DNA from: a virus | Reading direction: 5' to 3' (one strand) | IMG/VR virus record: IMGVR_UViG_3300032092_000011 | Location: 45,842-109,841 of that record | DNA length: 64,000 nt | In this document: positions 29,508 through 35,252 of the stretch, piece by piece | Layout: each line of letters begins with the position of its first letter | How positions within the stretch are numbered: position 1 is the first letter of the stretch | Made by a program: the position numbers and the translations under genes | Notes under the pieces: model-generated | Database searches by the model: none | What the model saw: the letters and a program-made list of their open reading frames with translations, nothing else | Told to the model about the DNA's origin: nothing

Positions 29508-29562
29508 GGGATGCTGTTTTGCTTTTTCCAATAAAAGTTTGTAAATTTGCTGAAAGCATCCC
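29508..29562 (-). ncRNA. GGAT-stem/CAGCAAA ncRNA family, short member
   Basis: GGGATGCT-TTCAGCAAAT...CTTTT-ATTGGA-AAAAG...AC-AGCATCCC. Confidence 0.6.
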
Positions 29563-29578
29563 TGTATTGTGGCGCTAA

Positions 29579-29791
29579 TTACTTAGCGGAAGGTGCCAAT
29601 GTAGTTGGAGAAACACCAGGAGCAGCAGGATCAACTGTTACAGTTGAATCTGTTGATGTAGAATCAGTTACTACAGCAGTAGAATCAACAGCAGTTGAAT
29701 CTGAACCAGTTGTAGCAGTTCCGCTACCATTACCACAAGATGTCAATCCAATTACCATTGCGATTGCGAAAAGAAAAGTGTACTTTTTCAT
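29579..29791 (-). CDS. small Ser/Thr-rich lipoprotein
   Basis: Lipobox GLTSC; DSTAV repeats typical of Bacteroidota lipoproteins. Confidence 0.7.
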   Translation of the reverse strand: MKKYTFLFAIAMVIGLTSCGNGSGTATTGSDSTAVDSTAVVTDSTSTDSTVTVDPAAPGVSPTTLAPSAK

Positions 29792-29819
29792 GTTTTTGTT
29801 ATTTTTTGTTTATTTGATA

Positions 29820-29847
29820 ATTATATAGGGTACTTAATCTTTGTTTC
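29820..29847 (-). promoter_or_regulatory. class B promoter GAAACAA-N15-TATAAT
   Basis: Exact motif and spacing shared with 36002, 42917 and 58313. Confidence 0.65.
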
Positions 29848-29851
29848 AAGT

Positions 29852-30232
29852 TTATTTAGAAACTTTTTTGAACTCTAAGAATTCAGTTGCCATTACAGCA
29901 TCTCTATAAGTTTTCATTGCCGACTTAAAACTAACAGGCCGGCCTGATTTAGTTACAAGATGCGTAAATCCACCTAAATGATAATCTTCATTAGGAGACC
30001 AAATAAGATAATAATGCTTCTTAATTCTATTTTTAGAATTAAGTTCATATGCTGGAGCCAAAGATCCAGTTCTCCAATCTTCTTTAAGAACGTTAATACT
30101 TTCGGCAAGTGCAACATGCTTTGGTAGGCCAGGACCATAATTGGCCTCAGTCCTTTGATACTCTATTAGAATATCCATTTTACCAATTTTAATGTGTTCG
30201 ATTTTTCTACTCATAATTTTATTATTTACCAA
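29852..30232 (-). CDS. hypothetical protein
   Basis: 126-aa ORF; likely start at MSRKI. Confidence 0.5.
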   Translation of the reverse strand: MVNNKIMSRKIEHIKIGKMDILIEYQRTEANYGPGLPKHVALAESINVLKEDWRTGSLAPAYELNSKNRIKKHYYLIWSPNEDYHLGGFTHLVTKSGRPVSFKSAMKTYRDAVMATEFLEFKKVSK

Positions 30233-30429
30233 GAATCCTCATCTGTTAAATCTAACTCAAGTTTAGTTAAGTGATTGTATACTTTAATAGAAGATCCCAT
30301 ACCGTACGAAGTAACTGACCATGTCATTAGGCCATATTCTCCGAACAGATCTTTAATCTTTTTAGCCCATTCATCAAATTTGGACTATTGTTCGTCGGAT
30401 AATTCGATTTGTATTACTTTATTTGACAT
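30226..30429 (-). pseudogene. small phage protein interrupted by an in-frame TAG
   Basis: MSNKVIQIELSDEQ*SKFDEWAKKIKDLFGEYG...ELDLTDEDSW; TAG at 30385-30387. Confidence 0.55.
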
Positions 30430-31096
30430 AAGCTTTTCTAAATAACATTACAACATCCATAGCATCTTCAATTGCATTGTGTGTTACCACATCTCCTAAT
30501 CCGGCACGTTCTTTACAAAGGCTAAGTCCAGGAGCGCAATCATCATTTTGCCAATCAATAAATAGGACAGATGGATCTAGAGTTCGGCCACGAGCTTTTA
30601 AACATTGCTTCCATCTTGGTAACCTTTCTAAAAACTTGTTATCAAAGTTGGCAAAGTTCTTACCAGCTGCATTAAAGTAAAAAGGTTTCATTTTGGAAGT
30701 TAAAGCTGGATATGATTTACCATTAACGATTTCAAAATGACCGGTTGGATCGTATTTACCATCTAGTGCACCATTATCATATAGGAATTGAAAGATTCTC
30801 TTTGCTACATCTTCTTCATAAAGATATTCACGACCAGTTCGTTGCTCAATTTCTTTACGTTCTTCATCAGTTCTAGCCAATTTGTATTCTAAAATGTCGG
30901 CAATTAGTTGACGATTCATATTAATCGCAAAGATTTCACCTTCAATTCTTTCACGAATAATGGCAATTTCTAGTTTTGGTAATTCTTCAATTGGTTTAAT
31001 ATCAATAGTATCTTCTACTACTAATCCAATTGATAATGTCTGTGTTGATTCGTTATCGATTCCGGTGGTTTCGATATCAATGCTTACGTATTTCAT
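30419..31096 (-). CDS. DEDDh 3'-5' exonuclease (oligoribonuclease-like)
   Basis: DIETTG, NFANFD, HNAIED. Confidence 0.8.
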   Translation of the reverse strand: MKYVSIDIETTGIDNESTQTLSIGLVVEDTIDIKPIEELPKLEIAIIRERIEGEIFAINMNRQLIADILEYKLARTDEERKEIEQRTGREYLYEEDVAKRIFQFLYDNGALDGKYDPTGHFEIVNGKSYPALTSKMKPFYFNAAGKNFANFDNKFLERLPRWKQCLKARGRTLDPSVLFIDWQNDDCAPGLSLCKERAGLGDVVTHNAIEDAMDVVMLFRKAYVK

Positions 31097-31686
31097 ATTA
31101 AAAATTTTAAGATTTCTTCTTTAACACCGCTCTGTTTGATTCCTTCTCGATTACGAGGAGTATGAACAAAATTTGTTAATCCTGGCTTTTTATCACTACT
31201 ATCTTTAGAAGCAAATCGATCGCCTAAGAATTTAACACTCATATCTAAATCATCAATGGCAACCCAATGTGTAATTTCTGGGTGATTTTCAACCCAATGA
31301 TTGATTTCCATGCTACGTTCTAGTTCTAATTCAGCTCTAAAACGAAAACCAGACCATTCGCTTGGATACAGGTCTTTAAACATATCAGTCGTTGCAATTG
31401 GAGCCTTAATAATACCTTGATTTAAGTAGTATTCTCCTAATTCTTGTAAATTAGCATGCAATCTCCAATCAGAACTAACTACAATTTCAGCTCCAGTTTG
31501 TTCTAAAATTTCATTTAAGATTTTAATTGCTTTTTTATCAAAATTATCGAATCTGTATTCGACTGGCATTTCACGAGTAGTCATGGATAGTTTCCTACCA
31601 CCCCATTCCTTTTGCTTTTTGAAGCGACCGCCCCAATTATCAGCAAGGCAAATTACGCCATCGTTATCTAAAAATACAATTTTCAT
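31093..31686 (-). CDS. HAD phosphatase, Swiss-Army-knife RNA-repair type
   Basis: FLDNDGV, VVSSDWR, VAIDD. Confidence 0.8.
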   Translation of the reverse strand: MKIVFLDNDGVICLADNWGGRFKKQKEWGGRKLSMTTREMPVEYRFDNFDKKAIKILNEILEQTGAEIVVSSDWRLHANLQELGEYYLNQGIIKAPIATTDMFKDLYPSEWSGFRFRAELELERSMEINHWVENHPEITHWVAIDDLDMSVKFLGDRFASKDSSDKKPGLTNFVHTPRNREGIKQSGVKEEILKFLI

Positions 31687-31720
31687 AAGTATTATATGTT
31701 TGTTTCGGAAAAAGTTTATA

Positions 31721-31747
31721 AAAAAACCCTGACGAAGTCAGGGTTTT
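31721..31747 (-). terminator. intrinsic terminator
   Basis: AAAACCCTGAC-TTC-GTCAGGGTTTTTT after 31769..32803. Confidence 0.75.
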
Positions 31748-31768
31748 ATATGTAGATTTTAAATGTGA

Positions 31769-34545: not shown

Positions 34546-34617
34546 TAGCCCGTACGAGAATCGAACTCGTCTCTCATCCGTGAAAGGGATGCGTCCTAAC
34601 CGATAGACTAACGGGCC
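34546..34617 (-). tRNA. tRNA-Glu(TTC)
   Basis: CATCC-CTTTCAC-GGATG. Confidence 0.9.
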
Positions 34618-34624
34618 AAATTTG

Positions 34625-34696
34625 CTCCCCGGGTAGGATTTGAACCTACGACCACACGATTAACAGTCGCGTGCTCTACCACTGAGCTACCGAGGA
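34625..34696 (-). tRNA. tRNA-Asn(GTT)
   Basis: CGCGA-CTGTTAA-TCGTG. Confidence 0.92.
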
Positions 34697-34702
34697 ATAA
34701 AA

Positions 34703-34892
34703 TAAATCTTCCATGCGCATTAACATGGTCAAGAAGTAACCGATGGTTTGTTCCCCATCGCCTGATGCCGTGCACAGCAGAGCAGGGTCTCCTACATAGC
34801 AACTCGGGGCATGATTACTCTCAATAAAGGTTGCGATCCTGCGAGAGCCGAGTTCCCTTTCAACGGTGCTAATCCGTCCTATGTGAGATTTA
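34703..34892 (-). ncRNA. ~190-nt multi-helix ncRNA candidate
   Basis: Closing TAAATCT/AGATTTA; ACATAG/CTATGT, AACTCGG/CCGAGTT, CGATGG/CCATCG, CCATG/CATGG, crossing GCAGG/CCTGC; GC-rich. Confidence 0.5.
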
Positions 34893-34896
34893 TTCG

Positions 34897-34970
34897 TGGA
34901 GGATATCGGATTCGAACCGATGACCCCTTGCGTGCAAGGCAAGTGCTCTAGCCAACTGAGCTAATCCCCC
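34897..34970 (-). tRNA. tRNA-Ala(TGC)
   Basis: CTTGC-CTTGCAC-GCAAG; G3:U70 pair. Confidence 0.92.
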
Positions 34971-35033
34971 GAAAAGAGTTAGGATCTGAGTCTTACGATA
35001 CCTAGGATTCTTCTGCTCCATCCATACTCTCTT

Positions 35034-35109
35034 TGGTAGCGGGGGCGGGATTCGAACCCGCGACCTTTGGGTTATGAGCCCAACGAGCTACCGCTGCTAC
35101 TACCCCGCA
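35034..35109 (-). tRNA. initiator tRNA-fMet(CAT)
   Basis: GGG/CCC in the anticodon stem, 1:72 mismatch, encoded CCA. Confidence 0.88.
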
Positions 35110-35117
35110 ATATATTG

Positions 35118-35188
35118 TTGTCCCCGAAGGATTCGAACCTCCACTAGATGGACCAAAACCATCTGTCCTGCCATTAGACGAGAGGACA
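35118..35188 (-). tRNA. tRNA-Gln(TTG)
   Basis: GATGG-TTTTGGT-CCATC. Confidence 0.9.
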
Positions 35189-35194
35189 AGATAC

Positions 35195-35252
35195 TGGATG
35201 CGCTTGTGTCAAAGTTAAAGTTTGATTTTGTAAAATTTGCTGCATGCATCCA
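35195..35252 (-). ncRNA. GGAT-stem/CAGCAAA ncRNA family, short member with anticodon-like hairpin
   Basis: TGGATGC-ATGCAGCAAAT...TCAAA-CTTTAAC-TTTGA...GCATCCA. Confidence 0.6.

Follow-up and report, generated by a model that had tools for sequence, protein, structure and literature searches.

Y RNAs have a stem formed by their 5' and 3' ends and an internal loop with a CGAA motif, and their genes lie beside that of Ro60 (PMC4201824, PMC12135203); the Ro-binding motif, near the 5' end, reads GNCGAAN0-1G (PMC4201824). Known partners of Ro60 (Rsr/TROVE) are the bacterial and phage RNAs YrlA, YrlB and Yrn1, and Yrl1/Yrl2 of Thermus phage phiLo (RF02553; PMC4201824; PMC12135203). In coliphage Bas63 (Felixounavirus) the gene for the Ro60-like protein gp130 is reported to lie directly upstream of the tRNAs and the protein to counter the ppl defence; the preprint describing it speculates that some of the 'tRNAs' are Y RNAs (10.1101/2024.10.10.617714). 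The Class I RNAs of dictyostelids, about 45–65 nt long, have a stem of 6–7 bp that joins their ends, an 11-nt CCUUACAGCAA right after the 5' stem strand and a variable interior (PMC7919456), and their 3' end reads ...C-UG(U) (PMC7919456, supplement). Here we analysed a window of 64,000 nt, the final 64 kb of a 109.8-kb IMG/VR viral contig (IMGVR_UViG_3300032092_000011; estimated completeness 42%) from a freshwater jumbo phage, and describe four elements, E1–E4, that share a terminal helix followed by C(A/U)GCAAA (the handle). E1–E4 are genuine small-RNA genes, and we put the probability that they belong to a phage-borne family of Y-RNA-like small RNAs that partner a divergent phage Ro60 at about 0.72.

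An earlier reading of the DNA letters without database searches (the sequence-only reading) had proposed four such elements, and all four proved to be real. They lie on the minus strand, embedded in an array of 25 tRNAs that are all on the same strand (Table 1). In their common layout, a 7-bp helix joining the ends (N-GGAU-NN / NN-AUCC-N') is followed by 2–3 nt, C(A/U)GCAAA and a variable module, usually with GU after the helix; on the 3' side of E3, GA replaces GU. The pattern GGATN{2,7}CWGCAAA matched four times in the window, with 0.46 matches expected and four reached in 0 of 100 shuffles, and no further site was found in the entire 110-kb contig, so the four-element pattern is not due to chance. 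E1 lies 7 nt upstream of tRNA-Leu(UAG), E3 lies 2–3 nt downstream of tRNA-Asp, and E4 is 6 nt upstream of tRNA-Gln.

The variable modules (payloads) differ, as had been claimed: two are tRNA-like bodies (E2, E3) and two are 5-bp hairpins (E1, E4). E1 carries a conserved hairpin, CUUUU-AUUGGA-AAAAG, then GU, and has a fold z-score of -3.1; its orthologues in about 23 IMG/VR contigs are nearly unchanged, with covarying helices. The payload of E2 is a whole tRNA-Asn(GUU)-like body in the order anticodon hairpin (AGG-CUGUUAA-CCU), variable loop, T-arm, 7-bp acceptor stem closed by CUCG, and D-arm. The consensus fold of six E2 orthologues keeps the T-arm, the closed 7-bp acceptor and the D-arm, with compensatory changes in the T-arm and in six of the seven acceptor pairs. 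E3 has the layout of YrlA, with an anticodon-stem analogue (ACCGG/CUGGU), T-arm, closed acceptor (CCCUUCA/UGAAGGG) and D-arm, and contains CCUUACAGCAA at 34260–34250; no E3 orthologue was found in the relatives. E4 carries a 5-bp hairpin resembling an anticodon arm, UCAAA-CUUUAAC-UUUGA, with a 7-nt loop and then GU, and the hairpin covaries across orthologues (UCAAA/UUUGA, UUGA/UCAA, UUCA/UGAA). The sequence-only reading had taken this loop for an anticodon that would read the UAA stop. The anticodon-loop shape of CUUUAAC was borne out and the UAA reading was not: the orthologue in relatives L010 and L001 has CUUUUAC, and since the UUA triplet is not kept between close relatives, a UAA-reading anticodon is not a conserved feature. 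Two other identities for the elements were rejected. An antisense Bacteroidota-type promoter (TAnnTTTG, plus strand) fits E1 and E3 only, by eye, and leaves the helix covariation unexplained, and K-turns or other named internal-loop motifs lack the required G-A pairs on inspection.

Relatives gathered via neighbouring proteins and via an exact 20-mer of E1 hold orthologues of E1, E2 and E4 with covarying helices. IMG/VR was also scanned with the pattern GGATN{5,6}CAGCAAAN{25,55}ATCCYGT, and the matches listed came from more than 120 contigs. Of the 123 unique matches listed, 90 (6.5 expected) also formed all three helix pairs left free by the pattern. In the same matches each of the four Watson-Crick types occurs at pairs 6 and 7, in agreement with the covarying inner pairs noted earlier, and position 8 is unpaired, so the helix is exactly 7 bp long. 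The IMG/VR phage contigs gathered hold at least 231 distinct members; thus the family that had been proposed exists, and its supposed four members are a local sample of it. Motifs are invariant while helices covary among phages whose proteins are only 30–50% identical, and, as judged from this pattern, the handle is under structural selection. R1, a covariance model of the handle built here, scores E1 at 61.5 bits (E 1.7e-11), E4 at 48.4 (E 1.5e-8) and E2 at 34.4 (E 2e-5). We found no description of the family in the literature.

Handle RNAs are residents of phage tRNA arrays with tRNA-like spacing: 166 of 167 members share the strand of the nearest tRNA, at a median gap of 6 nt, and the distance to a tRNA is nearly always 5–6 nt. 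Among the short members, 84 of 144 have a stem of 4–5 bp and a 7-nt loop whose position 33 is U and whose position 37 is a purine, and the commonest loop, CUUUUAA, is that of tRNA-Lys(UUU). A T-loop motif occurs in 56 of 83 long members, some of which have permuted bodies like E2; others follow the normal D/anticodon/T order with the handle replacing the acceptor stem. The acceptor stem of the phage's tRNA-Pro(UGG) (42398–42474, minus strand), CGGAUAG/CUAUCCG, is nearly identical to the commonest handle helix of the family, AGGAUAG/CUAUCCU, and the hairpin loop of E1, when read as 7 nt (AUUGGAA), displays UGG; the handle may be derived from a tRNA-Pro.

The commonest open reading frame (ORF) family around members encodes a protein of about 475 aa with the Pfam domains DUF2828 and DUF7788. 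This gene was present in 24 of 82 member loci and in 0 of 35 false-positive loci, with the nearest member at a median distance of 172 nt and on the same strand in all 24 cases. Handle RNAs are often found 20–200 nt from it. In a survey of 45 viral records with R1 and PF11443, all 26 gene-bearing records had R1 matches, the seven records with R1 matches and without the gene were all fragments (5–51% complete), and the 15 records of at least 90% completeness divided into eight with both handle and gene and seven with neither; because many records are related, these counts are not independent events. A handle RNA starts 16–70 nt past the DUF2828 stop codon in eight relatives (G001, G002, G008, G009, G010, G011, G012 and G044), and these gene-adjacent copies carry the helix variant GGUU/AACC. 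In G010 the DUF2828 gene is followed by two handle RNAs and a terminator. In G010 and G001 the short handle RNA just behind the gene is followed by another of about 235–246 nt with a large unexplained payload (L257 12990–13215, minus; L024 14105–14350, plus), which in G010 ends at an intrinsic terminator. The gene was also found in Escherichia coli K-12 phage ekra, related to Bas63, where the homologue ekra_107 is followed by a tRNA array with at least four handle RNAs in annotated gaps (L260 7711–8578, plus). The ekra handle has the helix AGACCNN/NNGGUCU, CAGCAA and a GG(U/C) tail, and the RNA at 8447–8578 has a YrlA-like body with T-arm, closed acceptor and D-arm. As the AGACC helix occurs with an identical CAGCAA, CAGCAA is universal within the handle and GGAU specific to a lineage.

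An AlphaFold2 model of the DUF2828 + DUF7788 protein has a helical-repeat N-terminal part and an alpha/beta C-terminal domain. The ten best Foldseek matches in the PDB are all Ro60/TROVE structures, full length over about 500 alignment columns (E 3.6e-8 to 5e-4), with chains of 9kop, 9l5y, 1yvr, 2i91, 1yvp and 2nvo among the best; VIA-align gave Z scores of 13.8–10.4 over 331–364 aligned residues, and vWA domains came next in the ranking. The protein is thus predicted to fold like Ro60 over its full length, with a helical-repeat ring and a C-terminal vWA domain. A sequence profile of the DUF2828 family found no Ro60 chain among PDB sequences, so the link to Ro60 is one of fold. Homologues are already annotated as 'Ro-like RNA binding protein' in some mycobacteriophages, and the DUF2828 family occurs in 710 cultured phage records, among them coliphages, Listeria, Staphylococcus and Campylobacter phages and mycobacteriophages. 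The sequence-only reading had supposed that one protein binds the common handle and displays different tRNA-like modules. Its suggested check, a covariance model of the handle and a look for a co-occurring protein family, bears this out comparatively, as DUF2828 + DUF7788 tracks the handle and often abuts it, and the handle probably binds this Ro60-like ring protein, to judge from gene neighbourhood and co-occurrence. The use of the modules as decoys or guides against tRNA-targeting defence, which that reading gave as an example, may be a role of the system. Neighbouring ORFs of 321, 344, 149, 126 and 110 aa were rejected as partners, since searches of Pfam, PHROGs, NCBIfam and the PDB gave no informative match for them.

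Every sizeable relative with R1 matches has the DUF2828 gene. The closest array-sharing sibling, G010, is collinear with the window at 45–64 kb; the last syntenic gene (window 63728–64000) coincides with the contig end, and the Ro-like gene of G010 lies about 2 kb beyond it. From this synteny we infer that the phage studied here has the gene about 2 kb past the end of its contig. The RNA-repair cassette near that end (58341–62480, minus strand; Table 1) is syntenic with the block directly downstream of the Ro-like gene in G010; RtcB is absent.

Taken from sequence, the architecture of the handle RNAs is a 7-bp end-joining helix, a large internal loop next to it with the near-invariant CAGCAA(A) on its 5' strand, and a short GU tail after the helix. 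The remainder of each RNA is an exchangeable module copied from a tRNA: an anticodon arm, a T/acceptor/D elbow or a whole body with closed acceptor. In the mechanism that we propose, the RNAs would be transcribed with the tRNA array and excised by the tRNA-processing machinery, as their tRNA-like spacing of 5–7 nt suggests. The handle would then serve as dock for the phage-encoded divergent Ro60 homologue, with DUF2828 and DUF7788 as helical-repeat ring and vWA domain, much as Ro60 docks on Y RNAs through their terminal stem and CGAA loop. The tRNA-like module could tether the Ro-like ring to proteins that recognise tRNA, either defence nucleases of the host that cleave tRNA, with the module as a sponge or decoy for them, or the end-healing and ligase enzymes that the phage encodes beside the Ro-like gene. 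With either target the system would act in the conflict between phage and host over tRNA, and we infer such tethering, to host anticodon nucleases or to phage repair enzymes, as the favoured role.

The RNAs might instead work as protein-independent tRNA or anticodon-arm decoys, or be bound by another, possibly host, protein; the handle would then do no more than cap the RNA for stability or processing, and the Ro-like gene would be a mere fellow traveller in the same tRNA/RNA-repair module. That payloads copy anticodon arms, most commonly with the CUUUUAA loop of tRNA-Lys, and that most members lie several kb from the Ro-like gene, in tRNA arrays, would suit this account, as would the reported binding of the similar Dictyostelium Class I RNAs to the RRM protein Rnp1A (PMC7919456). 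A cap needed for stability only, however, would not hold CAGCAA invariant across GGAU, GGUU and AGACC helices, and both the same-strand, gene-adjacent copies in many lineages and the presence or absence of handle and gene in step in complete genomes point to a specific partnership; we consider this alternative unlikely. Very improbable in our view is a role in translation as unconventional adaptors: the RNAs would be permuted or armless tRNAs that mature through cleavage and ligation, and E4, for example, would be a UAA-reading suppressor. The 7-bp helix has the length of an acceptor stem, the array spacing is tRNA-like, the 7-nt loop has the CU-NNN-AA shape and the phage encodes RNA ligases, but D and T arms are missing from the short members, E2 and E3 have loop-closed acceptor stems with no free CCA end, neither ARAGORN nor the Rfam tRNA model (RF00005) calls any of E1–E4, and the 'anticodon' of E4 differs between close relatives. 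The phage also already has tRNA-Asn and tRNA-Lys among its own tRNAs. It is equally improbable that the elements are decaying tRNA pseudogenes or processing spacers of the array without function: their location between tRNAs and the likeness of the handle helix to the tRNA-Pro acceptor stem would fit, whereas invariant motifs and covarying helices across 231 sequences, in phages with proteins only 30–50% identical, the covariation of payload helices as well, and the near identity of E1 in about 23 contigs speak against decay.

Several observations count against E1–E4 being Y-RNA-like partners of a divergent Ro60. R1 does not detect E3 as a whole, and this element qualifies by inspection of motif and helix only. 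The DUF2828 gene is absent from the phage's own 42%-complete, 110-kb contig, its place beyond the contig end being deduced from synteny only, and the link between handle and protein is drawn from co-occurrence among related phages, with counts that are not independent. The structural model has medium confidence (pLDDT 70). Pfam TROVE (PF05731) has no match in the contig or in 29 related records, and a canonical Ro60 system was rejected on these grounds. All four elements carry C(A/U)GCAAA where Y RNAs have GNCGAA/CGAA, and the binder reported for Class I RNAs in Dictyostelium, Rnp1A, is not a Ro homologue (PMC7919456).

Table 1. Positions of the handle RNAs and of annotated genes in the 64-kb window.
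Feature	Position	Strand	Sequence or basis
tRNA array, 25 tRNAs	28414..42632	-	ARAGORN and Rfam; no encoded CCA
E1	29562->29508 (29506..29562 with GU)	-	GGGAUGCU-UU-CAGCAAA...AGCAUCCC-GU; 7-8 bp helix GGGAUGC(U)/(A)GCAUCCC
DEDD-type 3'-5' exonuclease-like gene	30419-31096	-	Pfam, PHROGs, NCBIfam; inside tRNA array
Second HAD_SAK_2 phosphatase	31093-31686	-	Pfam, PHROGs, NCBIfam; inside tRNA array
E2	33145->33027 (33025..33145 with GU)	-	AGGAUGG-UUA-CUGCAAA...CCAUCCU-GU
E3	34265->34134 (34133..34266 with outer (U) and (G))	-	(U)GGAUUCCU-UA-CAGCAAA...AGGAAUCC(G)-AA; divergent handle
E4	35252->35195 (35193..35252 with GU)	-	UGGAUGC-AUG-CAGCAAA...GCAUCCA-GU
HAD_SAK_2 phosphatase	58341-58919	-	Pfam, family searches
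Rnl2-type RNA ligase	58919-59932	-	Pfam, family searches
T4 Rnl1-type RNA ligase	60093-61193	-	Pfam, family searches
AAA_33 P-loop kinase	61416-61829	-	Pfam, family searches
Metallophos phosphoesterase	61836-62480	-	Pfam, family searches

The pair of exonuclease-like and HAD_SAK_2 genes inside the array (30419–31686) is kept beside the tRNA arrays of relatives. A DNA comparison aimed at close cultured relatives gave matches limited to tRNAs. The closest complete relative by exonuclease identity, G001 (256 kb), has only four tRNAs in the region syntenic to the array of 25, so that array size differs greatly between close relatives; G001 retains the DUF2828 gene with its trailing RNAs in its first 60 kb and has two further R1 matches near 209 kb. 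Between E3 and E2 lies an AT-rich ORF of 321 aa without a family match (33150–34115, minus strand). A homologue with 50% identity occupies the corresponding position in L010; in L001 the ORF is missing and tRNA-Asp abuts E2. The ORF looks like an inserted or accessory gene. The array is also interrupted by an ORF of 1655 aa with collagen triple-helix repeats (36046–41013, minus strand). Four long, G+C-rich spacers between tRNAs without a credible ORF or handle motif (32926–33024, 34426–34544, 34697–34895 and 34971–35033, minus strand) are probably further structured RNAs. At 34735–34796 (minus strand), in a 199-nt spacer between tRNA-Ala and tRNA-Asn, is a full-length match to the Rfam freshwater-1 RNA motif (RF02979; 69.4 bits, E 1e-14) that just misses the threshold of 72.

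Compared with Y RNAs, E2 and E3 have the same tRNA-mimicking second module of T-arm, closed acceptor and D-arm, and E1 and E4 are without this domain, as is YrlB. There are several paralogous RNAs per genome in both systems, the RNA genes of the relatives adjoin a gene for a Ro60-fold ring-plus-vWA protein, and the context is one of RNA repair. Against the Rfam YrlA model (RF02553; gathering threshold 69), E2 scored 43.5 bits over its full length and E3 scored 18.3 bits in part (T-arm, acceptor and D-arm), both below threshold; an Rfam scan at E<=10 gave no match of any kind for E1 and E4. Unlike Y RNAs, the handle RNAs of the relatives have no TROVE-domain neighbour, and a Ro60-fold gene of another Pfam family stands in that place; this candidate partner family, DUF2828/DUF7788, is invisible to the Pfam TROVE model. 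Most handle RNAs are scattered in tRNA arrays and not just beside the gene, and many have a payload consisting of an anticodon arm only, which is not described for Y RNAs. With YrlA scores below the Rfam threshold, no GNCGAA motif and no TROVE neighbour, we class E1–E4 with the Ro60/Y-RNA kind, as a variant distinct from YrlA. The handle RNA family is apparently a widespread, undescribed relative of the Ro60/Y-RNA particle. If so, it would be a second and very common branch of the Ro60/Y-RNA world, and many 'gaps' in the tRNA arrays of phages would have an explanation. With its one handle and interchangeable tRNA parts, the system would also allow a direct test, in E. coli phages, of the tethering model of Y RNAs.

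Bas63 resembles the relatives in that a Ro60-fold phage protein is encoded directly upstream of a tRNA array. It differs in that the preprint names no RNA partner or motif and the ppl phenotype is not known to be linked to RNAs; the handle RNAs, if they are partners of the Ro-like protein, would give this anti-defence protein with a preprint phenotype a concrete RNA partner. Among the dictyostelid Class I RNAs, the 11-nt CCUUACAGCAA is matched by E3 at 11 of 11 positions and by E1 at the conserved positions U3, C6, C9, A10 and A11, and E2 keeps the conserved positions. Class I RNAs, in contrast, are eukaryotic, polymerase-transcribed genes with their own upstream DUSE promoter element, are reported as unique to Dictyostelia and have no tRNA-like payloads. 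As E1–E4 are phage genes inside a tRNA operon, the likeness to Class I is a resemblance only. A tentative idea, possible rather than probable, is that phage handle RNAs and Class I RNAs form one ancient class, in which a stem-plus-CAGCAA handle docks a DUF2828-type Ro60 and which in phages would be a programmable display of anticodon arms or tRNA bodies that disarms tRNA-targeting immunity or steers tRNA repair. The proposed partnership would also suggest a possible binder of the long-unexplained Class I RNAs of Dictyostelium.

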